Of a stretch of DNA of 64,000 nucleotides, positions 6,576 through 43,589 are shown in pieces. The notes beneath the pieces were generated by a model, which was not told the origin of the DNA, ran no database searches, and worked only from the letters and a program-made list of their open reading frames with translations. The stretch is from a candidate division FCPU426 bacterium (GTDB lineage: Bacteria; Oederibacteriota; Muellerivitia; Muellerivitales; Muellerivitaceae): positions 384,001 through 448,000 of the forward strand of contig CAWCKJ010000003.1 in assembly GCA_963796105.1 (NCBI GenBank), read 5' to 3'. Both the position numbers and the translations under genes were made by a program. Position 1 is the first letter of the stretch; each line of letters opens with the position of its first letter.

Positions 6576-7835
6576 TTAAAAGCCGAACCCGACTCCCCCT
6601 CCCACCTGGGTGTAATCCGCGCTTCCATTGCTGGAGGCACTGATGGTGGCGGACCATCCCTCGAATGCCCTTTGATAGGCCACCCCGATCCCTGCCTGCC
6701 CGCCCATGACGCCCACCCCCACGGCCAGCCGGTTGTCGCCCCTCTGGCCCACCGCCGCCACCGCCGCGTTGGCCGCCGCGGCCACCACCGCGCCGGAGGA
6801 CTGCGCCTGGGTCTTGGAAAACACCTGGTTCTGTTGGGAAATGGAATTCAACTGCCCGACGTTGGCGGCATCCGTGCTGTTGACGCCGTCCGCCACGTTG
6901 GTGATTCGGCGCGTTAATCCCGTGCTGGAGTTCCCGACTGAGACCGTGTTGGTCTGGTTGGCCGCGGAACCGGCCCCCAGGGCGACGCTGTTGGCCCCTG
7001 TGGCGGAGCTGTTGGCCCCGATGGCCGTGCTGTTGGCGGCGCCGGCGGCGCTATTGCTTCCCACCGCCGTGCTGTTGGCCCCGCCCGCGTTGCTGTTGAA
7101 ACCGTTGGCGGTGCTGGAAGTCCCGGTGGCGAGGCTTCCCCCACCGGCGGCGGTGCTGTCATCCCCGCTGGCGGTGCTGGATATCCCGACCGCGACGCTG
7201 GAAACCCCGGAGGCGCCGCTGGAGCTTCCAACGGCCGTGCTGTAGTCGCCGCCGGCGGCGCTGTTAGACCCATTGGCGGTGCTGGAAATCCCGATGGCGT
7301 TGCTGTGCATCCCGGTGGCGGTGCTGTTGTCCCCGCTGGCGGAGCTGAGCAATCCGGTGGCGGTGCTGTTATCCCCGCCGGCGGTGGAATCCGCCCCGTA
7401 AGCGGAGCTGTCGGTTCCTATAGCTTGGCTGTTATATCCATTGGAGGTACTGGCGATCCCGACCGCGGCGCTTCCCGCCCCCGTGGCGGTGCTTTGCATT
7501 TTGCTGGCATAGCTGTTGTAGCCGTTGGCGGTGCTGTCCTCGCCGTTGGCGGCGCTTCCGACTCCGGCGGCGGTGGAGTTATCCCCGCTAGCGGCGCTGT
7601 TTGCCCCAGTGGCGGTGCTGTTCGCCCCGCTCGCGGCGCTGCTTCCCCCGGTGGCGGTTCCGTAATCACCGCTGGCCGTGGCGGACGCTCCATAGGCGGA
7701 GCTGTTGATCCCGCTTGCGGAGGCTCCTGTTCCATTTTGTGTGTCTTGCGCCCATAACCGCGAGTCTTTTCCCGTCAATCCAATTATGAGGAATAAAACA
7801 CAGGCTAGGCTGAACAACCTCATCGACGTTTTCAT
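6576..7835 (-). CDS. Trimeric autotransporter adhesin (YadA-like)
   Basis: Signal peptide, many 14-aa head repeats (ASGDNSTATGxxSA), neck NTVSVG...RRITNVADG...DAANVGQL, anchor ending VGGGVGFGF. Confidence 0.92.
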   Translation of the reverse strand: MKTSMRLFSLACVLFLIIGLTGKDSRLWAQDTQNGTGASASGINSSAYGASATASGDYGTATGGSSAASGANSTATGANSAASGDNSTAAGVGSAANGEDSTANGYNSYASKMQSTATGAGSAAVGIASTSNGYNSQAIGTDSSAYGADSTAGGDNSTATGLLSSASGDNSTATGMHSNAIGISSTANGSNSAAGGDYSTAVGSSSGASGVSSVAVGISSTASGDDSTAAGGGSLATGTSSTANGFNSNAGGANSTAVGSNSAAGAANSTAIGANSSATGANSVALGAGSAANQTNTVSVGNSSTGLTRRITNVADGVNSTDAANVGQLNSISQQNQVFSKTQAQSSGAVVAAAANAAVAAVGQRGDNRLAVGVGVMGGQAGIGVAYQRAFEGWSATISASSNGSADYTQVGGGVGFGF

Positions 7836-9023: not shown

Positions 9024-12000
9024 ATGAAAATCTTCCTAGGAAAGTTTTGTCCCAAAATGAAACCGCTTTTATCCGGATCCCGTATTAGATACTTTTCTTT
9101 CTTTGCCCTCGCTTTATTATTCCTGCGGGTAGGCGGTGCTTTCTCCCCCGCCTCCGCGAACGTTCTCTTCTCCAACGTCTTCGGTTCCAACATGGTTCTC
9201 CAGCAGGGCGTGTCGATTCACGTGTGGGGTACAGCCAACACCGGGGAGGCAGTCACTGTCTCTTTCGGCGCAACGACCGTGACCGGAGCCGGAGACAATA
9301 ATGGCAACTGGTCTCTATATCTACCTTCTAATACAGCCAACGCCACCGGCCAAAACCTTTCCGCGTCGGGCCCCTCTAATTCCCAACCCCTCACCAATGT
9401 AGTAATCGGCGACGTCTATCTTTTATCGGGCCAATCCAACATGTGGTACGTTTGGAGCAACTGCACTGATAGATCAGGAACTGTGACCATAGGGCTTTCG
9501 GAGGCCGCTACCGCCACCTTCCCGAACATGCGGATCAGGCACGTCAATTCGGCGGCTTCGCAAACCCCCGTGGCGGATGTGCCGACGGGCCAATGGTATC
9601 AATATATTCCCGGCAATGACGCTAATACTCTCAGTTACACGGGCCTGGGCTATTACATCGGCAGGGATATTTCCCAGGCCACCACGAACACCATTCCAAT
9701 TGGTCTGTTAGAATCGGATTACCCTGGAATGCCACTGGAGATTTTTTTAAGCACGGACGCCATCCAGGCTGACCCGATCCTGGCGCCGGCCATTATCACC
9801 CCCTCCTCCCCCGCGACCTATACGGCTGAGGTTTACAACGCCATGATCGCGCCCCTGACGCCCTTCAACATCCGGGCAGTGGTTTGGGACCAGGGCGAGT
9901 CCAACGAGGGCGCCCCTTCTTATTTCCCCTCCTACGAATACGATTATCTCCTGCCGGAACTCATCAAGAACTGGCGCGAGAAATGGAACCAGAATTTTCC
10001 CTTCTACATTATCCAGCTCCAGAACATCGCCAACATGAACCCCGCGGTAATCCCCACTCCCATTCCCACCGGTCTCCCCTGCACCTACTGGAATGGCACG
10101 GAACCCTATAGCACCGCTTACAGCGTGGGGATCGCCGATGTGCGTTTTGGGCAATTCACTACCTTGAAGATGCCATTCACCGGCATGAGCGTGAATTTCG
10201 ACTTGAACCCCCGCGCGCTCAATTGCGACTCTTCCCTTTCCTACCACCCTCCCGACAAGCAGGATTTCGCGGCCCGCATCGTGCCCTGGATCCTGCGGGA
10301 TATTTACGGGCAGTCCCCCCTATCCATGACCGGCCCCCTTTATCAATCCTCCCAAACCCAGGGTTCCACAATTATCTGCCATTTCACATCCCCCAGCGGC
10401 GGGGCTTTTAGCCTTTCCACAAGCGATTCGAATCCCGTCACCGCGTTCCAAATCGCCGATTCCAGTAATTCCACGAATTACTATTGGGCCAATGCCGCCA
10501 TTTCCTCCGACGGGCAAAGTGTTTCGGTTTGGAGCCCCTCGGTAACGACTCCTATCTCGGCGCGCTATGCCTGGGGCTGGGATCCGGTTGATCCCAACGG
10601 CCCCGTGGCCAACCTCTCGGACACCAACGGCTACCTGGCCTCCCCCTACCAAACCTATAACTTCTCAAATATGCTCGTGACTGGCAACGGCAGCGCCGCC
10701 GTTTCCGACATGAACCTGACGCCATCCACCGGCAACGGGACGGATCTTGGAACTTTAGGCTTATGCCAAGCCGTGATTGAAACCTTCACCATCACCAACG
10801 ACCCAGCCGCCCTCGCGAACCTCAACTTGACCGGCGGCCCCAATTACGTCCGGATCACCGGCGCTAACGCGGCGGATTTCACGGTCGTTTCACAGCCATC
10901 GTCTTCTTCCCTAATACCCGGCGCCAGTGAGATCTTCCAGATCCGGTTCCAACCAGGCTCAACAGGCTTACGGCAGGCCATTCTTCAAATTCCCTGCGAC
11001 ACGCCTCAAAAAACCCCCTATACCATCTATATTCAGGCCACAGGCGCGGATAATTGCACCGCGACACCGACCTACACCGGCACCTGGTACTCCCCCACTC
11101 CCACTAATACGAACACCCCCACCATCACCCCTTCCCCCACCCTTACTCCCTCCGTGGCGGTAAGCATGATCGACAATTTCGACACGAATACCATCCAACC
11201 CGCGTCAAGCCGGCTGAATCTTTGGGGACAACCCTGGGGCGCTTATTCCGGAAGCGGGGCAACTATAGGGGTCACTTACTTCTCGCCAGGGGACGATGGG
11301 ACAGCCGATTGCGTCAGCCTTTTCGGGAACGTTCCCGCCAACGGTTATTGCAATTACTTGTCCTATCTTTTGAGCAATAAAGCCACCTTCAACGCTTTGA
11401 CGGCGGGTTACACAGGTATCATATTCGAGGTGAACGACAGTGACGGCAGCCAAATCCGGGCCCAAGTCATGTCCCAAGCCGTTACTTCCAATGATTATTT
11501 CGGCTCCTACTACACGGCGCCCCATACCGGACAATGGTACCCTGTGACGATTTTATTCTCGCAAATGTCCCAAGCTGGGTGGGGACACGATGTGCTTCCC
11601 ACTGCGTATAATCCCGCCACGGAAATTACGGGCGTGAAATTCGACATTACCTCTACAGGTAATTACGCATTTCTCCTGGACCAAGTCGCGTTTTTCGGTC
11701 CCTTGCCCACTGCCACGCCCACAGGAACATGGTACACCGCGACTCCCACCGTCACGGCCACCCCCACCATCACTCCCACCCCGACGGTCTCTCCTACCTT
11801 CACCCCGACCGGCTCCGCGACGCCCACAAAAACCAGCACACCCCCGCCGGACACCACTCTTTATAACTTCGAAAACGGCACGGTCATGGGTTGGAGTAAC
11901 GTTATTCCCTCAACGGACACCACACAAAATTCCTCCACGATGTCCTTTCTGGGGAACCACTCCCTGGCGGTAAGCTTGAATTTCCCTTGGACCGCCACCG

Positions 12001-12821
12001 GCGACAATGAATTCGGGGTAGAACCCCAGGCGAACCTGCTTTCCCCGGTTACCAATTTAACCGGAAAAACCTTGATCGCCCACCTCTGGGTGCCGTCCAA
12101 CTTCCCCGTTTCGCTCCAGGCGGACATTTATTTTAAAAGCGGTGGATCCTGGGCCTGGCAAACCGGCCCCTCGACGACCCTGGTGCCAAACACCTGGAAC
12201 ACTCTGACTTTGGACCCAACCGTGTCCTTTAACGTGAGCGGTACTCCTGATATCACCAATGTGCTGGGGATCGGGATACAGATACTTTATTCCGGGACTT
12301 GGACAGGCACGGTTTACATGGACTCCATGGACGTCCTCTACGTTGGAGGATCGCCCACCCCGACACCCACGGTTTCACCGACCATAACACCCAGTCCAAC
12401 CTTGACACCCACCCCGTCCCTGACATCCACCCCCACTCTTACACTCAGTCCCACGCCCAGCCCGACCAACAGTCCGACCCCCACCAACACCCCTACTCCG
12501 TCCCCTACGCCGACCCTGACGCAAACCCCGACACCCACGACGGCCTGTGTGGCTCCCCTGCTTTACCCGAATCCCGTCAGGGGAGACACGATGCAAATAC
12601 GCCTGTCTCCATGCTCGATTACCCCCCACGTATCGGTGAAACTTTTCACGGTTTCATTCCGGAAAGTGATGGACTTGGATGTCAACCCGATTCCATCGGC
12701 CGGGAATTTCTCGCTTCCCCTGTTGGATAATTGGAACAAGCCTCTCACGAACGGCTTGTATTACCTGGTGATTACCACGCCCCAAGGAAGGACCATCACC
12801 AAGATGCTGGTGATACGGTAA
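9024..12821 (+). CDS. Secreted modular sialate O-acetylesterase (SGNH/SASA) with Ig-like, CBM-like domains, Pro/Thr linkers and a T9SS-CTD-like tail
   Basis: [38 protein letters not shown]; choice-of-anchor-D-like segment; CIA30/CBM11-like and YNFE-type CBM-like segments; tail LYPNP...GLYYLVI...KMLVIR. Exact start uncertain. Confidence 0.85.
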
Positions 12822-17172: not shown

Positions 17173-17248
<76 letters not shown>

Positions 17249-17380: not shown

Positions 17381-18376
17381 TCAAAAAATGCGGAACTGGT
17401 TGAATCTCATGTTAAGAGCGAAGTAAAAAGTATCCTGGCTGGTGGTTTGAAAATCAGCGGGGTCATAAGCGATATCGACTGAGAAATCGTTGTCATCAAT
17501 GGCACGGGTTAAACTGCATCCTAGCGTGTAATTTTCAAAAACATTGCCCGTAAACTGCGAAAAGGATTGAAACTGGTACCCCCCGCGGACGCAGAACAGT
17601 TTCGGGAAGACCCAAACCTCGCCGCCTATGCCCATTTTCATGCCTTGATCCGAAGGTTTGAAAACCTCTAAACCCAGGTTCATGTCTTTTTGGTTCCCTA
17701 GATCCTGATGGATGCCAACCCCCAAGCGGATGAACATGGGAAGGGGATCCGCGCTCCCGGTCAAAGCCTGGTCGAATTTCATGCTGGTCCCTATGTTCAA
17801 GATCGAAAGGCCAGCCTTGATCCCGTAGGGTAATTTTTCCAATGTCGCGCCGACGTTAAAACCTAGTGCCTCGGAGGAATAGGACGCTAAATCGCTTTGG
17901 ATGTATTCCAACGTGCCCCCCAAACGGATCGCGGGTGAGACTTTCGTGGCGAATGTCCCCGAAACCAATATGTCGTCCGCGTTAACCGGCGGAGCGCCGT
18001 TCTGGTTGTCCACTGGAGGCATATGGCGGTACTCGAAATTGAGCGCAGCCGCGGTCTCAAAACCAATCGCCGAGGCGAAGGTCAAGTATTCATACTGGAT
18101 CTGAGCCAAACTATCTAAATGGTAGATGAGTAATTGGGAGGCTTTCAAGTTTGACAAACCAGCGGGATTATAATCAATGGAATAGGCGTCATCCCCCATT
18201 GCGGTATAAACACCGGCCATCCCGGCAGGACGCACTCCCTGAGTGATTTTTAAAAGGTCAGCCGTCGTGGTACCGACAGTTTGGGAAAAGGTCCGGCAGA
18301 ACCCCGCCGCCACAAAAAATACAAATAACCATCCGATAATTGATTTTGATCTGAACATATTTTCTAGTTTCATCAT
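17381..18376 (-). CDS. PorV/PorQ (UPF0164)-family outer-membrane beta-barrel
   Basis: DLLKITQGVRPAGMAGVYTAMGDDAYSIDYNPAGL, amphipathic strands; AGGAGG SD before ATG 18376. Confidence 0.82.
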   Translation of the reverse strand: MMKLENMFRSKSIIGWLFVFFVAAGFCRTFSQTVGTTTADLLKITQGVRPAGMAGVYTAMGDDAYSIDYNPAGLSNLKASQLLIYHLDSLAQIQYEYLTFASAIGFETAAALNFEYRHMPPVDNQNGAPPVNADDILVSGTFATKVSPAIRLGGTLEYIQSDLASYSSEALGFNVGATLEKLPYGIKAGLSILNIGTSMKFDQALTGSADPLPMFIRLGVGIHQDLGNQKDMNLGLEVFKPSDQGMKMGIGGEVWVFPKLFCVRGGYQFQSFSQFTGNVFENYTLGCSLTRAIDDNDFSVDIAYDPADFQTTSQDTFYFALNMRFNQFRIF

Positions 18377-18408
18377 TCCTTCCCTCCTAAAAACCTTATA
18401 TAAAAAAA

Positions 18409-19380
18409 TCAAAATTTGGTGCTGATGGAAATTCGATGCGTGTCCCCGAAGACATCCTCGGGAGCGTAAGCATAATCCAGGAAAGCCACTGTGCCGTTGA
18501 AATCAAGTCCATAACCGGCCCCTAGCGTGGGGCCCACCCCGCTGAGGGAAGTGTCCAAAAACTGGTAGCCGCCCCGCAAAGTGGCCCTGTTGCCAATCCA
18601 TTTCAAATTATACTCTACACCAACCCGCATCCCAACCTTGTCTTCAATGGGTTGGATGGGGAAAATAGCGTCCACGCTGATGGCGCCGTCATCCTGGTCG
18701 GAAAAAAGCTCATAACGCCTGTAAGAAATCCCCGTATTGAGGCTGAAAGGTAAATCAAAGCTGGATTCCTGCGCTCCAAGGTTTTTAAGCGCTATTCCGA
18801 CTCTCATTCCGTCAAATGGCGGCAGGACAATCAATCCCGCGTCTAAGCTGAAAAGGGACGAGGAAAGGGTATCAATCTGTTGTTGCATTAATTTCCCAGT
18901 CAAGCCGAAGTGCACCGCTTGGCTGATTTCATGGGCGTATGAAAGGGTGAATATACTGTCGCCGCTGGAAAAAGTCCCGACTGTCTGGCCCTGGTCGTTC
19001 GTCCTGGGCATATTTCCCGGCTGGAGAAGGTTCACGCTGATGGCCGCGACCCCTCCGATGGAGGGGGAGAAAGACCCCACGGGGGTGGCAAAAGCGACGA
19101 ACTCATAACTCATCTGCTGATAAAGCGAAAGATATGTCAAATTTAATTCATTAGTGAGAACGCTGGCCAACCCCGCGGGATTGTAATATACAGCCCCGAC
19201 GTCATCCCCCATGGCCGTATAGGCCTCGCCGCTTCCCATCGCCCTGGATACGGGAGAAATTTTCAAGAAATCAAAAGCACTACGCCCAGCGTTCGCTGTT
19301 TGAGCCTGAGAACTGCCAGAAAGACCGAGGGCAAAGAATAGAAAAGAGAAACATATGCGCTTCAAAAAAACGCGATTCAT
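18409..19380 (-). CDS. PorV/PorQ (UPF0164)-family outer-membrane beta-barrel
   Basis: AFDFLKISPVSRAMGSGEAYTAMGDDVGAVYYNPAGL ... LDYAY...GDTHRISISTKF. Confidence 0.88.
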   Translation of the reverse strand: MNRVFLKRICFSFLFFALGLSGSSQAQTANAGRSAFDFLKISPVSRAMGSGEAYTAMGDDVGAVYYNPAGLASVLTNELNLTYLSLYQQMSYEFVAFATPVGSFSPSIGGVAAISVNLLQPGNMPRTNDQGQTVGTFSSGDSIFTLSYAHEISQAVHFGLTGKLMQQQIDTLSSSLFSLDAGLIVLPPFDGMRVGIALKNLGAQESSFDLPFSLNTGISYRRYELFSDQDDGAISVDAIFPIQPIEDKVGMRVGVEYNLKWIGNRATLRGGYQFLDTSLSGVGPTLGAGYGLDFNGTVAFLDYAYAPEDVFGDTHRISISTKF

Positions 19381-20943
19381 TTAGGCTCCGTTCCGCGAGC
19401 GGGAGATTGCGATCTTGCCAAACTGTTTAGATCCATTTGGTCCCTCAATCAGATACAGGTAAAAACCCGAGGAAACTGGATTACTGTCGCCATTCGTCCC
19501 ATCCCAGATAAAAGTTCCTAGGTTTAAATTGGAAGAAATCAAGAATACACTGGGATCAGTTGAGTTCAATACTTTCACTAATTCGAGCTTGATGGTGTAA
19601 ATTTTCAAGGTTGATCCGACCGGCACGCAGGCGAATTTGATACAACCATGCGAACCGCATGAACCAAGAGTGCCAGAGGGCAAGTGGTTATTCGGTGGAC
19701 TTGCCTGGAAATCCATTGGATTGGGATAGATGTAGATGGGACAAGGAGTCTGGGTCGGCGGAGGCGTCATGGTAAATGTACCCGTGGGGGTGATGGTAAA
19801 AGTGTTGGTCGGAGTATCGGTGATGGTCGGTGTATAGGTGAAGGTGTATGTGTATGTGTTTGTAAAAGTGTTAGTGTATGTATAAGTGGGGGTGTAAGTA
19901 TATGTGTATGTGAATGTGTTGGTAAAGGTCGGGGTGCTAGTCCAAGTATAAGTATAGGTATAGGTGTTGGTAACAGTCGGAGTGCCGGTGAAGGTACTTG
20001 TGAACGGCGGAGTCCAGGTGCCCGTCGGGGTTTGCGTAAGCGTGGGAGTTTGAGTTGGGCTCAAGGTGGCCGTTGGAGAGTCTGTTTGGGTCGGAGTCTG
20101 GGTGAACGTATTGGTTGGAGGCGGGGTCGGGGTGTTCGTTGGAGATAACGTGGGTGTGAATGTATCTGTATTTGTCGGCGTAGGGGTAATGGTGGGAGTA
20201 TTCGTTTTAGTGGGTGTTTCAGTGACGGTATAGGTAAAAGTCGGGGTGGGGGGCACGATGCAGGGCAATGTGCCGGACCACCTCAGGTTGTCCATATAAA
20301 CCAAGTTGGAATCCATTTCATCAGCAAATCCTGAAGGAATGATGACCTGGACCAAACTAACCGGATGTGTCAAACCTGACACATCAACAAAAATCGTCGA
20401 CCAAGTATTGGCAATTGTGGAACCAGCTAAAATACCGGAAACGGCGCAATTATAAACAAGGTCATTATCCGTAACGGCGGTAACCGCACCGCTTGTATCA
20501 ATTACTGTAATATCCATTTTTCTTCCTATATTGGCAGTATATACATCCAATTCGATAAAACTTTGGGTCGATTGAACTGTTGCGGCAGTTCCCGGATGAG
20601 GATCGGTATAAGTCAATGTAACACCACAATCTTCACAATCCTGGCTTGCATTGGTATACCCCGTTGTTAAGGGTGAGGTTTCGCCCAGATTCAAATTATC
20701 CGGATTTGTGGTGTTATTAGTGAGTACCCCCAATGAGAAAACCGTTCCGGTTCCCGAGGGGTCGGAATTAGTAACCATCCAACTTGTTATAGCATTGTCG
20801 AAATGCTGGTTCGGGTCGTTTGATAGCGGATAACAGGTTATCCCAAAAGCAGAAGAATATCCGGAAAGGAAAGTCAAAATAAAAAGAATTGAATAACCCA
20901 ACCCCAGGGATTTAACAGAAAACAAATCTCGTTTTAAAAACAT
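19381..20943 (-). CDS. Secreted Thr-rich protein with T9SS-CTD/FlgD-Ig-like C-terminus
   Basis: Signal peptide; ~170-aa TX repeat tract; IYPNP...LKIYTIKLELVK...WDGTNGDSNPVSSGFYLYLI...GKIAI. Confidence 0.8.
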   Translation of the reverse strand: MFLKRDLFSVKSLGLGYSILFILTFLSGYSSAFGITCYPLSNDPNQHFDNAITSWMVTNSDPSGTGTVFSLGVLTNNTTNPDNLNLGETSPLTTGYTNASQDCEDCGVTLTYTDPHPGTAATVQSTQSFIELDVYTANIGRKMDITVIDTSGAVTAVTDNDLVYNCAVSGILAGSTIANTWSTIFVDVSGLTHPVSLVQVIIPSGFADEMDSNLVYMDNLRWSGTLPCIVPPTPTFTYTVTETPTKTNTPTITPTPTNTDTFTPTLSPTNTPTPPPTNTFTQTPTQTDSPTATLSPTQTPTLTQTPTGTWTPPFTSTFTGTPTVTNTYTYTYTWTSTPTFTNTFTYTYTYTPTYTYTNTFTNTYTYTFTYTPTITDTPTNTFTITPTGTFTMTPPPTQTPCPIYIYPNPMDFQASPPNNHLPSGTLGSCGSHGCIKFACVPVGSTLKIYTIKLELVKVLNSTDPSVFLISSNLNLGTFIWDGTNGDSNPVSSGFYLYLIEGPNGSKQFGKIAISRSRNGA

Positions 20944-20952
20944 TCACTTCTC

Positions 20953-23900
20953 CTAAAGCACTATATCCAGCAAATTGAATGCCCCCACCGCGACCAAATC
21001 CGACCTTTCGGGTGTCGGTAACCGGTTCAAAGCCGGAATATTGGGTGTTGAAACCGTAAGATTCCCCAGAACCTGTTGGTTTTCCGGCGCCAATCGATTC
21101 GGAACACCATTGGAAGGAGTTCCTAAAACCGCCTGGCTCTCCGAAGTAGCCCTATTATCCCTATTTGGAAGGGTTCGCGCAACTGATTCAAAGGCTGAAA
21201 TTTGTGGGGTTGAAAATATGGGATTCAGCAACGGTGGAGGTTGCTGACTTGTGACGGTTTGGACTGGAGGGGCAGATGTGGCAAAAAAACCCTGACTTGA
21301 GGGTGAAAAGGTGTTCAAAGAGGCGATTTGAAGGGCACTTAGGGTTTCCTGCAACCTTTGACTCAAAGCTTTTCTACCGACTTCCCTGATCCGATCCTGA
21401 ATAAGTTGGTCCTGGGTTTCCTGGCTTAAAGCATCCGGTCCGGGACCCACGTTCGGGATAATCACGAATGGTTTGGCTCCTGTCAATTGGTCCTGCGTAT
21501 TCTCAGTGGTCGAACCCTGAAGAGGGGCGGAAATATTGATATTAAGGTTTGTCGTCAAGGGAACAGCCGGCAATGGGGAGGGCGCCACTAACCTGGAATG
21601 AACCGGAACTTTGTTCTCAGCGATGACCACTTCACTATTAGTCACATTGGAAAAGGTGGGTCCCTGGTTTGGTTGAAAGGGATTTAACAGCCCTGGATAC
21701 GCTGCTTGTCCGGGATTGGGAATATTGGGCATCTGAGCGGGCTCCAAATTGACATTGTTTTGAGGCGCAACGGGAGTCTGGATACCTTTTGCTCCCACTT
21801 GAGGACTCCTTCGCCTGGAATCAAGACCTATCGTTACGGGTGGATTTTGATTTGAAAATTGGTTATTTAGGGTCGGTGTTTTTCCTGGGCCAATTTCCTT
21901 ATTCCCCATGGTTTCGGGATTGGGATTAGAAATGGGCTGAACAGCCTCAGGAGTTAAAGTTCGAGGATTTAGAGACTCTGTTTCCGGAAGGTTGACGGCT
22001 ATTAAATTTTGATTCGAAGGCCCGCCAGCCATTACCCGAAAATTCGGCTCCCGTGTCCCTGTCAGCGCGAATTGCTTAGGTTGGTTCTGTGTACCAGCCT
22101 GAGTAGTAGGTCTCACCGCAACCGGCTGGTTTTGAGTCCTTTCAGGATTGGTTTGGGGCATTTGAACCTTGGTTTCCTTCTGTTCCTCATTGGCGGTTGT
22201 TCTCAAATTTTGATTGGCAATGGGTTGAACCGCTTCCGGAGGAGCCGGTCTTGAAGGCTGATTCGAGTTTACAGGCGCTTGATTAATGATCGGATTAGTT
22301 TGAACCGGCCCGCCCGCCACAACCCTGAAATTAGGCTCCCGAGTCGCAGTCCGAGCTGATTGCGTAGGTTGGTTCTGTGTACTTGTTTGGGAAGTAGGTC
22401 TCACCGCAACGGCCTGGTTTTGAGCCCTTCCAGGATTGGTTTGGGGCATTTGAACCTTGATTTTCGGTTGCTCCTCGTTGGGGGTCGTTCTCAAGTTTTG
22501 ATTGGCAATGGGTTGGACCCCTTCCGGAGGAGCCGGTCTTGAAGGCTGATTCGAGTTTACAGACGCTTGATTAACGGCCGGATTAGTTTGAACCGGCCCA
22601 CCCGCCACAACCCTGAAATTAGGCTCCTGAGTCTCAGTCCGAGCTGATTGCGCTGGTTGGTTCTGTATACCAGCCTGGGTATTAGGTCTCACCGCAACCG
22701 GCTGGTTTTTAACCCTTCCAGGATTGGCTTGGGGCGTTTGAACCCTGGTTTCCGGTTGCTCCCAGTTGGAGGTTGTTCTCAGGTTTTGATTGGCAATGGG
22801 TTGAACCGCTTCTGGAGGCGCCGGTCTCGAAGGCGGATTCTCGTTTACCGGCGTTTGATAAACGGCCGGATTAGTTTGAACCGGCCCGCCCGCCACAACC
22901 CTGAAATTAGGCTCCCGAGTCGCAGTCCGCGCGGATTGCGCTGGTTGGTTCTGTGGACCTGTTTGGGTATTAGGTCTCACCGCAACCGGTTGATTTTGAA
23001 CCCCTCCAGAATTTGCATGGGGCGTTTGAACCCTAGTTTCCGGCCGCTCCTTGTTAGTAGTTGTTCTCAAGTTTTGATTGGCAATGGGTTGAACCGCTTC
23101 CGGAGGCGCCGGTCTTGAAAGCGGATTCTCGTTTACCGGAGCTTGATTAACGGCCGGATTAGATTGAACCGGCCCACCCGCCACAACCCTGAAATTAGGC
23201 TCCCGAGTCACAGTCCACGCGGGTTGCGTTGGCTGCTTCTGAGTTCCAGCCTGGATATCAGGCACCACCGCAACCGGCTGGTTTTGAATCCTTCCAGGAT
23301 TGGTTTGGGGCGTTTGAGCCCTGGTTTCCGGACGCTCATTGTTGACGGTTGTTCTCGAGTTTTGATCGACAATCGGTTGGATTGTTTCAGGATTCCCTGG
23401 TTTTAGAGCCGCCCCGGAGGACTCAATCCTAGAATTGGAATTGGTCGCGGCAGGGATTACGGTTCCCCGAGCAACGGCTTGCGCGCTTTCAAATTGAAGG
23501 TTATTACTTCCGGTACCAGGTTGGATGAGATTTATTTCAACCCCGCCTTTTCCCGCCATATTGGGAAAGGCCTGGCCCCGATTAACGGGACCCTCCAAGC
23601 GTGAATGACCTGTTGTTTCCGCTGATACGGTTTTGGCATTAGCCCCGGGAATTTTGGAATTTTCACCCACAACTCTTGAATTTCGAGCGTCATTGAAACG
23701 GTTATTGGGAAGATTTGTTTCAGCTGGATTCCCGCTGGGATGAATAATATTTTGATTACCGGCCGTCTGACCAGTCACCCCGCCCTCCATTACAGGGAAA
23801 TCCTGTTTTGAAAATCGATCCGCCGGCGGAGGAAGAAGAAGATTTTTTAATTGATTCAATCCGCTTTGAAGGGTTTGAACCCCCTGGATGGCGTCTTGGA

Positions 23901-24108
23901 TGACCATCGGGAGGGGTCCGAATTTCTGGGTTAAAAAATTAACGGCTTTTACTGAAAGTTTTTCATCCCGTGACGCCTCCGGCTTGGGGTCCTGATTGAT
24001 TTTCCTCAAGGCGGGGTCTGTCCCCAGAACAAGGGGTTGAACCGTTAGATCGTCCTTTCTCCTGACGGAACCGATGGAGTTATTTCCAATGAATGAGTAT
24101 CCAGCCAT
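20953..24108 (-). CDS. Large disordered Asn/Gln/Pro-rich protein with 96-aa tandem repeats
   Basis: 1051-aa ORF after flbD with AAGGA SD; no signal peptide seen. Confidence 0.75.
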   Translation of the reverse strand: MAGYSFIGNNSIGSVRRKDDLTVQPLVLGTDPALRKINQDPKPEASRDEKLSVKAVNFLTQKFGPLPMVIQDAIQGVQTLQSGLNQLKNLLLPPPADRFSKQDFPVMEGGVTGQTAGNQNIIHPSGNPAETNLPNNRFNDARNSRVVGENSKIPGANAKTVSAETTGHSRLEGPVNRGQAFPNMAGKGGVEINLIQPGTGSNNLQFESAQAVARGTVIPAATNSNSRIESSGAALKPGNPETIQPIVDQNSRTTVNNERPETRAQTPQTNPGRIQNQPVAVVPDIQAGTQKQPTQPAWTVTREPNFRVVAGGPVQSNPAVNQAPVNENPLSRPAPPEAVQPIANQNLRTTTNKERPETRVQTPHANSGGVQNQPVAVRPNTQTGPQNQPAQSARTATREPNFRVVAGGPVQTNPAVYQTPVNENPPSRPAPPEAVQPIANQNLRTTSNWEQPETRVQTPQANPGRVKNQPVAVRPNTQAGIQNQPAQSARTETQEPNFRVVAGGPVQTNPAVNQASVNSNQPSRPAPPEGVQPIANQNLRTTPNEEQPKIKVQMPQTNPGRAQNQAVAVRPTSQTSTQNQPTQSARTATREPNFRVVAGGPVQTNPIINQAPVNSNQPSRPAPPEAVQPIANQNLRTTANEEQKETKVQMPQTNPERTQNQPVAVRPTTQAGTQNQPKQFALTGTREPNFRVMAGGPSNQNLIAVNLPETESLNPRTLTPEAVQPISNPNPETMGNKEIGPGKTPTLNNQFSNQNPPVTIGLDSRRRSPQVGAKGIQTPVAPQNNVNLEPAQMPNIPNPGQAAYPGLLNPFQPNQGPTFSNVTNSEVVIAENKVPVHSRLVAPSPLPAVPLTTNLNINISAPLQGSTTENTQDQLTGAKPFVIIPNVGPGPDALSQETQDQLIQDRIREVGRKALSQRLQETLSALQIASLNTFSPSSQGFFATSAPPVQTVTSQQPPPLLNPIFSTPQISAFESVARTLPNRDNRATSESQAVLGTPSNGVPNRLAPENQQVLGNLTVSTPNIPALNRLPTPERSDLVAVGAFNLLDIVL
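21920..23395 (-). repeat. ~5 tandem 288-bp (96-aa) repeats
   Basis: TGATTGGCAATGGG-like anchor at 22211, 22499, 22787, 23075 and 23363. Confidence 0.92.
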
Positions 24109-24140
24109 TTTTCCATCCTTCTAGTCAAACCAGACCTTGC

Positions 24141-24341
24141 TTAATGGTTTTCCACCACTTTGGGATAACAGCGGGACTTATACTCGACGATATGTCCTAC
24201 TACTTGGGAGATGGTTTCCTTGACGGTCATTTTCTTGCCGTTTTGGAGTGTAAGTATCGTCTCAGGTGAGCTCTCCAGAAAAAGAATTAAATCGGCGTTG
24301 ACATAAACTTCCCGTCCGTCTAATCGGGTTACTGGTATCAT
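24141..24341 (-). CDS. flbD: Flagellar protein FlbD/SwrD
   Basis: MIPVTRLDGREVYVNADLILFLESSPETILTLQNGKKMTVKE; GGTGAGG SD. Confidence 0.92.
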   Translation of the reverse strand: MIPVTRLDGREVYVNADLILFLESSPETILTLQNGKKMTVKETISQVVGHIVEYKSRCYPKVVENH

Positions 24342-24474
24342 TGCCTCACCTTCAATGCCTTCAACTTCTATTTTATCACAAGATACCCAGGCCATGGCCC
24401 AATTACAAGACCAGTTGACTCATGCCGACATCGATGGAGCAACTTGATAAACCCAAATTTTTCCAAGTGAGTCT

Positions 24475-24552
24475 AAAAAAAACGGCGCCCCCCGTGAAGG
24501 AAAGCGCCGCCTATTCCAACAAAACCGTGCTTCCGGTTGCCCGGAAGCACGG
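24475..24552 (-). terminator. Tandem intrinsic terminators after flgE
   Basis: CCGTGCTTCCGG-GCAA-CCGGAAGCACGG-TTTTGTT, then CGGCGCTTTCC-TTCAC-GGGGGGCGCCG-T8. Confidence 0.85.
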
Positions 24553-39844: not shown

Positions 39845-41419
39845 TCAACGGCTATGCACTGGCACAGCAGTTCCAGCTGCTTGAATAACGGTACTATAGG
39901 GTAATGCAACAGCACTTATTTCTTTGGATCTTGAACTTTCTGTTCCATCGTTTCCAACTGTCGTTAAAGAAAAGAAATATCTTTGTCCGACTTTTAACTT
40001 CCGAACCAGATAGGTTGGAACATTACTAATGGGCTGAGCATTTACTTTTTCAAACCGCCCACCTGAAACTTCTGAAATGTAAATATTATACCCTTTTGCA
40101 CTGATCTTTCCCGGATCAGCCAACCCCGCTATTCCGGCTTGCTTAGCAATATCAATGACACCCTCATTTTGAAGCTCGCTTTGAACCACAACCGGTGCGC
40201 CAGGAGCAGATGTCGTGCCAGCTATTATCTCTCTTGAATATTGACTTTCAACTGGAGGTACAGTATTGGTTATTGAACTTACCACAAAATAATAATGAGT
40301 ATTTTTCTCTAATCCACGTAGCGAATAATAATTTGCCTTTACCGGTTTTTGGTTGATTTTTACATAACCTCCACCAGAAGTTTTAGTGAAATAAACGTTA
40401 TATCCAGCCAAGGAAAGGGACGGTGAATTTACCCACCTAAGGGTAATAATATCGCCATCCACTGATGCATTTAAACCTTCCGGAATAAAACTTTTCACTT
40501 TCCCCAAGAAAGACTCGCCAAACCGCCAATTGGCAGAGATCCGATGCGTTGCTCCTAGAAATTCAGCATGACCCATATAAGCATAATCAATTCCCCAAGA
40601 TTTTGAACGATAACTGATCCCAGCAGTAAACTGTCCAGGAAGTGTCATAAAATCACTATACCCGGTTCTGATTCCAAGTTGGTCCTCAAAAAACCAGCCT
40701 TCAATACCTGCGTGCAACAGTGTATGATCCCCTACTGTTTGGTCACTAATGCTTTCAAATTCCCAAGCTGTAACTAAATCGTCAGTAAACTCATAACTAA
40801 ATCCACCCCTGACACTCAATGCAACCGGATCAACGTTTCCACCCTGCCAACGAATAGTTGTGTCCACATCTTGAGCGCATAAACCAATATTTATTTGTTT
40901 TCCATATCGAGGATTCAAAATTGGCATATGATATAGAAAACCCAGATCAAGGCCCCAACCAGTAGCTTGAAGTCCTGGTTGATTTGACGAATCCGCACCA
41001 TAAAGTTTTAAATTCAGCCCGCAAGAAATAGACTTATCAATCGCTAATGGCGCTGCAAAAGACCCATAATAAATCCGTTCATTCAAGGAGCCGTCAGTAA
41101 AAAAATGTTGTTGAGTGGCAATTGCCCACGCCATTTGATCGCCAAAAGGCTGCACATACACGCCTTCAAAATCATCCTCTTTTCCGTTTAAAAGAATTGC
41201 GGCCATTCCTGATATTTCAGGGCGTAAAACTTGAACAAGACCAGCAGGATTGAAAAAAACCGCATCACCAGAATCCGCTACTGTTGTAAATGCCCCACCC
41301 ATTCCCAAAGGTCGAGCACCAATACCCGTAACGCCGCCTTTAGCAAAAGTCTGTGCTTTCACAGAAGTTATCGGCAGCAAAAGCAATAATAGGATGGCAG
41401 CTAAATTCCTAATAACCAT
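39845..41419 (-). CDS. PorV-like beta-barrel fused to two fibronectin type III domains
   Basis: GIGARPLGMGGAFTTVADSGDAVFFNPAGL...IDYAY...THRISANWRFG, then two (A/K)GYN(V/I)Y...L...Y(Y/F)F FN3-like modules. Confidence 0.82.
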   Translation of the reverse strand: MVIRNLAAILLLLLLPITSVKAQTFAKGGVTGIGARPLGMGGAFTTVADSGDAVFFNPAGLVQVLRPEISGMAAILLNGKEDDFEGVYVQPFGDQMAWAIATQQHFFTDGSLNERIYYGSFAAPLAIDKSISCGLNLKLYGADSSNQPGLQATGWGLDLGFLYHMPILNPRYGKQINIGLCAQDVDTTIRWQGGNVDPVALSVRGGFSYEFTDDLVTAWEFESISDQTVGDHTLLHAGIEGWFFEDQLGIRTGYSDFMTLPGQFTAGISYRSKSWGIDYAYMGHAEFLGATHRISANWRFGESFLGKVKSFIPEGLNASVDGDIITLRWVNSPSLSLAGYNVYFTKTSGGGYVKINQKPVKANYYSLRGLEKNTHYYFVVSSITNTVPPVESQYSREIIAGTTSAPGAPVVVQSELQNEGVIDIAKQAGIAGLADPGKISAKGYNIYISEVSGGRFEKVNAQPISNVPTYLVRKLKVGQRYFFSLTTVGNDGTESSRSKEISAVALPYSTVIQAAGTAVPVHSR

Positions 41420-43589
41420 TCGGGCCTACCTTCTCACCATTTATATGGATGTCCGAAAGCTGCAAAAACTGTAACTGATTTATTTTCCCAACAGCAAAAT
41501 TAGCAGCCACTTGGGTTGGAGTAATTATAACCAATTCATTTTTTCCATAATATACACGAGTTGATATCTCTTTTAAACCTGTTCCTACTGAATTCACACC
41601 CGTTTTTACCACTTCTCCCGCTTCTTGGAATATATAAGGGACATATGTCAAATGGGAACGATAATTTATAATAATAATAGCGTCCCCATTAAGGTTTTTA
41701 TCAAAATGAGCATTTAGCACTTGATCTGGGTTCAAATGGTTAAATCCCATTACCGGAACATTACCAGCTTCCGGATAACCCGTATTATTGGCAGAATCAG
41801 TCGGGTTAACATTTTTCTGCTGAGCATTAGCGGTATTGGATACTAATTCCATGGATTCAAGCATTTTCTTGAGATTTTCCTGAGCCAAAGTTGTAAGTTT
41901 TTTCCGTTCTTGCTCAAGTAATGATTGTTGTTGTCGGCGAATGTTGATAAGTTTAGCCGAGTCTTTAATTGATCCCTCATTTACAGAGGATAATATTTCA
42001 ATTGTTTGAACGGGGGTTGAACCAATATGTTCTAATTGATCTTGGACTTGAAAAGCCCAAGTATAAACACCCGGCGGTAAGGGTTGATACTCATCATCTT
42101 CACCACTCCAAAGCAATTTAGTTGTAGGTGATCCAACCCCTCTTAAACCCCTCACCAAATGGTTGTTTTTATCATAAATTAATACGCTCCAACGATTAAC
42201 TGTAACATCCTCAGTTGTATCTAAATGAAATTCCGCTTTTTCACCTTGAGCAGGAAAAAATGAGGCCGGTTGAACATAAGCTCCTACTTTAGGTGGCGGC
42301 AACTCCTCTCCTCCGCCAAAGCGATAAGCCATTCCAATATAAAAATTCTCAAAATTTATACCACCCGTGTCATATGAACCAATAGCTGATCCCGCTGTTA
42401 CACTCGCAGAAGGAGAAACTGGCAAAAGATAAGCCGCATCTGTTTGAAAATCTCCGTTGAAAGCTCTTAAGCTTAATCCTAATGAAAAAATTCCGGGACG
42501 ACTTAAAGGCGTTGAATAACCCCCACGTACGGCCATAACGTCCCTAAAAAACCAGAATTCTGTTCCGAAACGAAGATATTTATTATCGGAATCCGAAAAT
42601 CTCGGATCAGAAATTTGGTCAAAATCAATTGCAGTAATATTTCGTATTTTAAATAAGTAAGCATTTTTATACGCAAATCCTAATGTGATTTCTGGCGGAA
42701 TGTTAGCTTGATATCCTGGTCCCACATTAAAAGTAATGGGGGTAGCACCAGGAGGAATGTACAAGATATTAGAACCCGCAGTTAGGCCATTTGGATATTG
42801 CGCCAAACCCACTAAATCGTTCAAAGCTAAACCAATTCTAAATTCCTCTGAATATTTAGTTATTGGAATTCTATAAAGGATACCAACATCCACTCCAAAT
42901 CCGGTAACTTGAGTCGCATTATTAAGTGCCTTTGCCAAACTAGGGTCATTTCCAAAATATCGTATGTAATAAGGATCGTTTGTAATTCTTTTTATATTAA
43001 CTCCAACCGAAAAATTCCTAACAGCAGAAAAACGAGCCGCATAAGAAAGAAGAATTTCACTTTGTTGAAAACTCGGATTTTGAAGATAACTAAATTGCGA
43101 CGATGTCGGTTGATCTAAAAAATTATTTCCAATATATAAATTGCGTTGATCGTGAAAGGGCCGGAAAAGAGATATCCCTAATGTATTTTCTTTTGCAAGT
43201 GGAGCAATAAATTGGAAGGAAGCGTACCATGGAAATCCAAATCCAGGCTTTCCATTAACCTTGTCCATGAAATAATCGGGAGCACTTGAGATTGATAATT
43301 CGTAAGATGAAAGCTGAGCCAAACCAGCAACATTCCAATAAGCTGCTGATGCATCATCCGAAATTGCGACAAATGCCCCACCCATTCCAATAGCCCTGGG
43401 ACCAATTCCTGAGGTTTCCTTCCATCCGAAAATAGGGTTGATCGTTTGAGAATAAGCAACATTTGCAAATAAAATAATAAATAAAAAACCAATTAATAAA
43501 TTAAGATTTCGTTTATGCGCATTCGAGTACCGAATAATTCTTTTATTTAATTTTTGCACCTTTATCATCACCCTTCTTGTTTTACCCAA
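41409..43589 (-). CDS. PorV-like beta-barrel plus FlgD-Ig-like domain and coiled-coil tail
   Basis: GIGPRAIGMGGAFVAISDDASAAYWNVAGL; WSVLIYDKNNHLVR...LLWSGEDDEYQPLPPGVY; start may lie slightly downstream. Confidence 0.8.
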   Translation of the reverse strand: MGKTRRVMIKVQKLNKRIIRYSNAHKRNLNLLIGFLFIILFANVAYSQTINPIFGWKETSGIGPRAIGMGGAFVAISDDASAAYWNVAGLAQLSSYELSISSAPDYFMDKVNGKPGFGFPWYASFQFIAPLAKENTLGISLFRPFHDQRNLYIGNNFLDQPTSSQFSYLQNPSFQQSEILLSYAARFSAVRNFSVGVNIKRITNDPYYIRYFGNDPSLAKALNNATQVTGFGVDVGILYRIPITKYSEEFRIGLALNDLVGLAQYPNGLTAGSNILYIPPGATPITFNVGPGYQANIPPEITLGFAYKNAYLFKIRNITAIDFDQISDPRFSDSDNKYLRFGTEFWFFRDVMAVRGGYSTPLSRPGIFSLGLSLRAFNGDFQTDAAYLLPVSPSASVTAGSAIGSYDTGGINFENFYIGMAYRFGGGEELPPPKVGAYVQPASFFPAQGEKAEFHLDTTEDVTVNRWSVLIYDKNNHLVRGLRGVGSPTTKLLWSGEDDEYQPLPPGVYTWAFQVQDQLEHIGSTPVQTIEILSSVNEGSIKDSAKLINIRRQQQSLLEQERKKLTTLAQENLKKMLESMELVSNTANAQQKNVNPTDSANNTGYPEAGNVPVMGFNHLNPDQVLNAHFDKNLNGDAIIIINYRSHLTYVPYIFQEAGEVVKTGVNSVGTGLKEISTRVYYGKNELVIITPTQVAANFAVGKINQLQFLQLSDIHINGEKVGPNGY

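Follow-up and report, generated by a model that had tools for sequence, protein, structure and literature searches.

A three-gene cassette from a flagellated candidate division FCPU426 bacterium was analysed within a stretch of 64,000 nucleotides (hereafter the window; contig CAWCKJ010000003.1, positions 384,001 to 448,000), where it occupies window positions 17381 to 20943 on the minus strand. It encodes a secreted cargo ending in a domain that resembles the CTDs (C-terminal domains) known from type IX secretion systems (T9SS), followed by two tandem barrels of the PorV type. The best reading of the data is that the cassette holds a dedicated cargo-carrier pair of a T9SS variant devoid of motor and sortase. 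It is rather probable that the first barrel is the cargo's own carrier and surface anchor, in a T9SS-like system which possesses SprA and for which neither motor nor sortase could be detected. The anatomy of the cassette, the families of its barrels and of SprA, the pairing of tails with barrels and the non-detection of GldL, GldM, GldN, PorU and PorP come directly from the sequence and from searches made with it.

The cargo gene (19381..20943, minus strand) is an open reading frame (ORF) of 520 residues coding for a signal-peptide-like N-terminus, a head with the fold of a carbohydrate-binding module (CBM), a Thr/Pro stalk and a CTD-like tail. Its stop and the start of the first barrel gene (PorVa, 18409..19380, minus strand; 323 residues with a C-terminal Phe) are separated by 0 bp, and the second barrel gene (PorVb, 17381..18412, minus strand) follows. 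The true start of PorVb is probably the ATG at 18376, which is preceded by an AGGAGG site. The preliminary description had reported a secreted CTD-like protein abutting two tandem PorV-like genes, and this arrangement was confirmed: both barrels exceed the cut-off of 90 bits of NF033709 (PorV/PorQ family), with 123.2 bits for the first, which is the predicted cognate carrier from this match and from co-folding, and 122.9 bits for the second. With the more specific models the first barrel scored 108 bits for PorQ (cut-off 220) and 37 bits for PorV, both below cut-off, and no barrel among those scanned reached the PorV or PorQ equivalog cut-offs. A profile of the second barrel matched PorV of Flavobacterium johnsoniae (6H3I_F) with an E-value of 2.6e-17. 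The cargo and both barrels are kept together in 21 of 22 orthologous loci, namely 20 of the 21 loci scanned (the best cargo matches plus L024; the L089 cargo was seen only before overlap filtering) and genome G012, the sole exception being G015. Stop and start are coupled, with a spacing of -16 to +5, in all 20 orthologous cassettes measured.

The N-terminus of the cargo, read by eye, is hydrophobic and signal-peptide-like. The head (residues 36-232, about 195 residues; 20248..20838, minus strand) was modelled by AlphaFold2 with 18 orthologs as a CBM-type beta-sandwich, with a predicted local distance difference test score (pLDDT) of 82.7 and a predicted template modelling score of 0.83. The top Foldseek match of this model was CBM11 (E 3.9e-7), and VIA-align superposed it on a mannanase CBM with Z 13.2 and a root-mean-square deviation of 2.8 over 139 residues. 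The flagellar sheath protein FlaA1 has this fold too (Z 10.4, tied with dozens of CBMs), and the predicted fold alone does not identify a ligand. In the Atlas, the head falls in clusters that are nameless or CBM-like; the head profile had no match among PDB sequences, and the whole cargo folded from its single sequence gave a pLDDT of 31 and no usable model. The stalk (19738..20253, minus strand) is a low-complexity segment of 172 residues, including 78 Thr and 31 Pro, whose length varies among orthologs. The tail (residues 401-520; 19381..19743, minus strand) is of the PorZ/PorU type and carries a Cys-containing insertion. Its best family match is the CTD region of PorZ, which all 20 orthologous tails matched at E ≤ 1 (lowest value 2.1e-8), and the tail profile matched the tail of the control PorU with 91% probability (E 9e-7). 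Lys510, near the end of the tail, is invariant among orthologs and comparable to a lysine that type A CTDs conserve (PMC10994853). Judged by sequence, the cargo tail is homologous to T9SS CTDs despite scores below the curated cut-offs.

The cassette is one of several such units in the genome (G000; 4.98 Mb, 96.8% complete). NF033709 matched 18 ORFs, 16 of them at or over its cut-off, and many of these barrels bear TPR, FN3, FlgD-Ig or OmpA extensions 3' of the barrel. The iterated tail profile found a C-terminal match in 123 proteins, three of them anti-sigma-like and a few of them fragments, and in none of the reversed ORFs. The CTD-tailed proteins account for 9.1% of the genome, Thr-x stalks being present in 96 of them; some tails other than that of the cassette pass TIGR04183 or PF18962, and xylanase-like, esterase-like and CBM domains occur among the cargos. 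The system had been called minimal, which is true of its machinery and not of its repertoire of 123 cargos and 18 barrels on about 9% of the genome. A CTD gene lies directly upstream of 10 of the 18 barrels, with gaps of -28 to 0, against a background of 3.1% (binomial p 2.6e-11), leaving 113 of the 123 tails without an adjacent barrel. The ten paired tails are more divergent than the 113 others (median nearest-neighbour identity 0.37 versus 0.64, p 2e-4) and none of them has the common F-R-K-V motif, which is present in 34 of the 113. Over the ten pairs, barrel similarity and tail similarity are correlated (Mantel rho 0.51, p 0.002).

A natural rearrangement separates the roles of the two barrels. 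In G015 (L085:111-4407 and L152:1-2865), only the second barrel stands behind flgE, and neither the original cargo nor the first barrel is present at that place. The cargo head (110.8 bits) is in this genome joined to another tail type and placed before a barrel of another clade, which has FlgD-Ig, OmpA and TPR domains and is the ortholog of the barrel at C4:94315 of the present genome (support 100). The nearest G000 tails of the swapped protein include the cargo of that same C4:94315 barrel, and the tail of the cassette studied here ranks 60th. The first barrel's closest relative in G032 and in G038 stands behind a CTD cargo, with the ortholog of the second barrel placed elsewhere; in these two genomes, as in G015, the second barrel occurs without the cargo. 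Because of the arrangements in these three genomes, the tail and the first barrel travel together and the second barrel does not. The cargos of the second barrel are most likely others, not linked to it. For the roughly 110 cargos that have no barrel next to them, a small set of shared general carriers is probable. Among these the best candidate, from sequence, is the extension-free barrel at C3:696897-697853, because it is the best match of the control PorV (E 1.6e-8) and because 21 of the 25 other genomes searched in the family and order contain a clear ortholog of it (E below 1e-100).

Co-folding of tail and barrel, another check proposed in the preliminary description, was carried out for the first barrel. 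The pair scored 0.88 and the best of three controls 0.55; the mark used was reached by 116 of 157 solved pairs and by 2 of 215 mismatched pairs. Contacts agreed between runs to at least 94%, with a partner pLDDT of at least 79. The predicted interface comprises barrel residues 27-41, 87-90 and 119-139 together with Lys510 of the tail. Loops 87-90 and 119-139 align, weakly (E 0.073), with Asn87 and Phe115 of PorV, two residues which contact the CTD (PMC12398890), and the tail is accordingly placed outside the cell in the model. The proposal of dedicated cargo-barrel pairs is thus supported for the first barrel by adjacency, co-variation, the G015 swap and co-folding; the second barrel does not track the cargo and is separable from it.

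The translocon of the system was not within the window, in agreement with the preliminary description, which had seen no sprA; the contig nevertheless carries a single sprA gene of 2017 residues with a C-terminal Phe, at a distance of about 170 kb (C3:212289-218342). Its product scored 207.6 bits on TIGR04189 (cut-off 200), had no match to Pfam SprA_N, and has an FN3-like region at its N-terminus. By phmmer the single sequence had no match in the PDB. A profile built from 21 SprA sequences of the phylum only matched SprA of F. johnsoniae (6H3I) with an E-value of 2.6e-52, and this profile was relied on because an earlier one (E 1e-172) contained Bacteroidota rows. In the host GTDB phylum, which counts 99 genomes, SprA was matched in 92 at E ≤ 1e-12 (58 of the 60 of high quality). 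The closest named relatives are from Elusimicrobiota (E 3.6e-61) and Endomicrobium, those from Bacteroidota being more distant (about 1e-21). In a tree of 44 rows made with FastTree and rooted at midpoint only, the 19 phylum sequences fell on one side of a branch (support 100), apart from 9 sequences labelled as belonging to the Fibrobacteres-Chlorobi-Bacteroidetes (FCB) group, and grouped with Elusimicrobiota- and Spirochaetes-labelled proteins. The phylum includes Candidatus Goldbacteria, MutL of member G031 being 94% identical to a protein with this label, and the host is therefore, as had been suspected, a flagellated organism outside Bacteroidota. Thirteen bases behind sprA lies an FN3-rich CTD gene of 1618 residues (C3:212289-223212, L003:12289-20000, both with sprA). 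A CTD gene stands directly 3' of sprA in 13 of 20 relative loci scanned, and the 1618-residue protein is a candidate translocon-associated cargo or plug.

The motor and sortase were searched with a Flavobacteriales genome (G041) as positive control, which scored. GldM was matched in 0 of 99 phylum genomes at E 1e-3 and in 0 of 28 at E 0.01 (control 1e-57 to 1e-60), GldN in 0 of 28 at E 0.01 and GldL in 0 of 4. GldK gave only sub-cut-off matches resembling sulfatase-modifying factors in G000 and G031 (at most 63 of 350 bits) and none in G002 and G029. PorP/SprF (PF11751) had no match in G000, where the control scored, and the PorU model covered the CTD end alone among the matches listed for this genome; one partial match to the C25 catalytic region of PorU was seen in G036. 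With the control sequences as queries in G000, PorU matched CTD tails only and GldL, GldM and GldN nothing. At the level of sequence matches, the lack of porKLMN noted for the window therefore extends beyond it, and the whole-genome search which had been proposed yielded SprA, no match to GldL, GldM or GldN and, among the matches listed, the CTD end alone of PorU. For PorW/SprE there was only a weak generic TPR match (24 of 250 bits), no search having been aimed at accessory subunits. Four ExbB/TolQ homologs were found in G000, and the 4-5 kb around them include neither a barrel gene nor sprA. Elsewhere on the contig, C3:563359-571105 (L028:8359-16105) encodes a barrel with FlgD-Ig and OmpA domains, a TPR lipoprotein, a TPR protein, a 511-residue protein without known function and a plain barrel. 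This cluster is kept in G001 minus the gene of 511 residues, and parts of it are sprA-linked in other families; among the candidates for core accessory machinery it ranks first.

The steps by which the cassette would operate are modelled on the mechanism of Bacteroidota. The cargo would cross the inner membrane by Sec export, and the barrel would dock at the lateral gate of SprA, its outer loops capturing the tail, before the barrel-tail pair leaves the SprA pore laterally. This release would be either spontaneous or driven by an unrecognised partner, for which no candidate was found; the flagellar motor as a general energiser was rejected because G001, G027 and G030, which have no FlhA, retain SprA. 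Since no PorU was found, the tail would not be cut and the cargo would stay on its barrel and act as a glycan adhesin, its CBM-like head extended outwards by the Thr/Pro stalk.

Several results weigh against this assignment of a motor-less carrier pair. The YPNP...IYT...WDG motif quoted for the tail in the preliminary description is present and the homology with PorZ supports its CTD-like nature, but in the profile check suggested there every curated cut-off was missed: 11.7 of 23 bits for TIGR04183, 15.5 of 27 for CHU_C and 14.6 of 27 for FlgD_ig, with no match to TIGR04131 at E ≤ 1. Against the PDB, the best match of the tail was PorZ (5M11) at an E-value of 0.086 only. The same Ig domain is also found within the extensions of barrels and in anti-sigma-like proteins anchored in the membrane, and hence is not always an export tag. 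The nearest barrel belongs to the nearest tail in only 3 of the 10 pairs, and co-variation is also expected from joint duplication of gene pairs. As for co-folding, the control at 0.55 was one that retained the tail; the runs covered the first barrel, so that they provide no comparison of the two; and because similar PorV-CTD complexes are already solved, a pass may reflect likeness to them rather than binding. Finally, non-detection by hidden Markov models (HMMs) leaves room for a very divergent motor, and in F. johnsoniae release from the pore requires the motor (PMC10994853), for which no replacement was found here.

The position of the cassette next to flagellar genes was also considered. 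In the window, flgE lies upstream of flbD (24141-24395) and of a low-complexity gene of 1051 residues (20953-24108), which together occupy 20953..24395 (minus strand). The 1051-residue gene stops 9 bases short of the cargo. On the 3' side of flgE there is a terminator-like hairpin with a T-run (24480..24512, minus strand). A tRNA-Phe gene (17173..17248, minus strand), kept in the family, lies directly 3' of the cassette. The 1051-residue protein is repeat-rich and has no family match; its counterparts in relatives have 396 to 869 residues and mostly an L-L-D-L-V-L-like tail. In many relatives, and not in this genome, a Kelch-repeat lipoprotein gene is inserted between flgE and the cassette (L024:4458-5486, L070:3358-4350). 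Of 20 cassette loci, 15 have flgE on their upstream side and the remaining 5 reach a contig end first, and the hairpin and T-run after flgE were recognised in 15 of 16 folded loci, by eye and without a shuffle control. A promoter-like motif, TTGCGC-17-GATAAT (21154..21182, minus strand), falls within the 3' end of the 1051-residue gene, and the start of the cargo follows 239 bases later. It is the sole match in the window and one of 22 genome-wide. In the form TTGC(G/A)(C/T)-17-GATAAT, it is conserved before the cargo in 10 of 10 defining loci and in 6 of 9 further ones, where shuffles expect 0.01. No site with the sigma-28 consensus was found at the cassette region, and generic promoter and terminator scans of it were at chance (11 versus 10.4 and 14 versus 15.7). 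These motifs suggest that the cassette probably has its own promoter and is not read with the hook operon.

Cargo-barrel pairs are also found behind flgK in G028, G029, G033 and G039, from three other families, where the cargos have no match to the head profile, and related pairs are not linked to flagellar genes in G031, G037 and G036. Co-loss of cassette and flagella in G013 was rejected as an assembly break, and G026 is fragmented. It was likewise rejected for G005, G009 and G014, which have a cassette barrel without an FlgI match and are 63-80% complete; G020 shows the reverse. The only remaining case is G001, without FlgI, FlhA and both barrels. The flagellar link looks mostly positional.

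Four other explanations were weighed against the dedicated carrier pair. An ordinary motor-driven T9SS, whose GldK, GldL, GldM and GldN have diverged past HMM detection or been replaced by a conserved analog, is the least unlikely of them, though we regard it as unlikely. Such an analog could be the C3:563359-571105 cluster of TPR lipoprotein, TPR protein and barrels working with a Ton or Tol motor: homologs of its TPR genes are found close to sprA in G031 and G037, while in G028 and G035 its barrel stands behind sprA and a cargo. A SprA barely at cut-off and without SprA_N match indicates a divergent lineage, and release is energy-dependent in the studied system. These arguments are opposed by the lack of GldM in 99 genomes (E 1e-3) and of GldM and GldN in 28 (E 0.01) while the control reached 1e-57 to 1e-60, by the ExbB/TolQ homologs of G000 being unlinked to T9SS genes, and by the 20 sprA loci inspected by eye, beside which no uncharacterised block of membrane genes recurs. 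A somewhat lower probability is given to a flagellum-associated module, in which the cargo would serve as an adhesin or as a sheath-like protein and be positioned by its barrels at the base or the filament of the flagellum. The upstream flgE of 15 of 20 loci, the flgK-linked pairs of four genomes, a second barrel pair before flgF in several families, the combined absence of FlgI, FlhA and both barrels in G001 and the FlaA1-like fold of the head (Z 10.4) would all fit. However, the conserved sigma-70-type motif before the cargo, the hairpin after flgE and the missing sigma-28 site point to separate transcription, the flgK-linked cargos do not share the head, and pairs are unlinked in G031, G037 and G036; moreover the G013 co-loss is an assembly break, G001 is a single case and FlaA1 is tied with CBMs.

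The two last explanations are both improbable, and to the same degree. The tail could be a periplasmic FlgD-like Ig domain which docks the barrel from inside, with no export through SprA; its scores below the CTD cut-offs, a similar FlgD_ig score and the recurrence of the domain in barrel extensions and anti-sigma-like membrane proteins could be understood in this way. SprA is near-universal in the phylum, however, and usually followed by a coupled CTD gene, the xylanase-like, esterase-like and CBM domains of the cargos suit extracellular substrates, and co-folding sets the tail on loops aligned with the extracellular CTD site of PorV. Alternatively, export could be T9SS-like with interchangeable barrels, adjacency resulting from co-regulation and operon duplication. 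Recognition of type A CTDs by PorV is plastic (PMC10994853), there is crosstalk among type B pairs (PMC12618676), and most tails, 113 of 123, lack a neighbouring barrel. Coupled spacing in 20 of 20 cassettes, the divergence of paired tails and the joint change of tail and barrel in G015 argue against such interchangeability.

The dedicated pair can be compared with three known arrangements. In the attachment complex of Porphyromonas gingivalis, PorZ-PorQ and PorU-PorV, an uncleaved type A-like CTD protein sits on its own barrel (PMC12398890). The cassette resembles PorZ-PorQ since its tail best matches the PorZ CTD and its first barrel scores higher for PorQ than for PorV; it differs by a passenger made of a CBM-fold head and Thr/Pro stalk instead of two beta-propellers or a sortase, by barrels under the PorQ and PorV equivalog cut-offs, by the non-detection of PorU and by the tenfold occurrence of such pairs in this genome. 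In the type B pairs of PorP/SprF carriers (SprB-SprF of F. johnsoniae; PG1035-PorP-PorE of P. gingivalis), the cargo gene is directly upstream of its carrier as here, the cargo remains carrier-bound, and orphan cargos can share a carrier (PMC12618676). An OmpA-like domain, reminiscent of anchoring by PorE, is fused to some barrels of this genome. Unlike type B systems, the carriers here are of the PorV/PorQ family (NF033709), the tails are type A/FlgD-like, the domain for peptidoglycan binding forms part of the barrel protein itself, and there is no gliding track. By analogy, the cassette would work like PorZ-PorQ and like the type B pairs, and it belongs to neither. With the T9SS of Bacteroidota (6H3I, 6H3J, 8GL6 series) it shares SprA and PorV homologs, and its cargo has a CTD-like tail and a signal-peptide-like N-terminus, whereas SprA has 2017 residues and an N-terminal FN3-like region, GldK, GldL, GldM and GldN were not detected, and the host is flagellated and outside Bacteroidota. 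Of the components of a canonical T9SS, SprA and a PorV-family barrel were thus found at the sequence level, and motor, ring and sortase were not.

The T9SS and its CTD have been called exclusive to the FCB superphylum (PMC12398890, PMC12611786), and an earlier survey reports no T9SS outside Bacteroidetes in 2013-era genomes (10.1101/031039). Goldbacteria correspond to the FCPU426 cluster, and the main text of their description is without T9SS except in one reference title (PMC7031533). No description of a T9SS outside FCB was found in the open-access literature, exclusive of supplements (among them the SprA distribution in Extended Data Table 2 of PMC12611786). According to a 2025 model, the T9SS arose from the gliding machinery (PMC12635249). 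A flagellated phylum where 92 of 99 genomes match SprA and not one matches GldM, and a genome with about 9% devoted to cargos, allow the energy need of the T9SS and its evolutionary order to be tested. More tentatively, and with doubt outweighing confidence, SprA and PorV-type carriers might constitute a complete, self-sufficient export and display system without the GldKLMN energy chain throughout the Goldbacteria phylum and in neighbouring groups, each specialised cargo having a carrier of its own. With such small two-gene cargo-carrier units, the code by which tails and barrels recognise each other becomes open to testing, for instance with Flavobacterium as host.

Other features of the window and genome belong to the same system or lie near the cassette. 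Of the four PorV-like genes counted in the window by the preliminary description, the two of the cassette are over the NF033709 cut-off and the other two (39845..43589, minus strand) under it, with 57.8 bits for 39845-41419 and 88.2 bits for 41409-43589. The latter have C-terminal FN3 and FlgD-Ig extensions and form a separate module before flgF, possibly as an outer-membrane part of the flagellar base. An FN3 barrel also precedes flgF in G026, G028, G031, G033, G035, G037 and G038, and is found elsewhere in G029. The second CTD-like protein that had been reported in the window, at 9024..12821, has indeed a CTD-like tail of the common type (19.1 bits for TIGR04183, cut-off 23) but is encoded on the plus strand and is not a cassette member; with an acetylesterase-like and a CBM-like domain, it is a separate cargo of the same system.

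Three anti-sigma-like membrane proteins of the genome end in a CTD/FlgD-Ig domain, each beside a cargo-barrel pair (L031:2132-2788, behind an ECF sigma gene; L030:4702-5751; L030:14905-15555), and could act as sensors linking barrel or export status to transcription. A YadA-head protein resembling trimeric autotransporters is encoded at 6576-7835. The flagellar cluster at 28000-64000 has 33-43% G+C and a strong skew, against about 50% G+C for the genome, and flgK (30690-33287) has a close second copy at C7:14118-16364.

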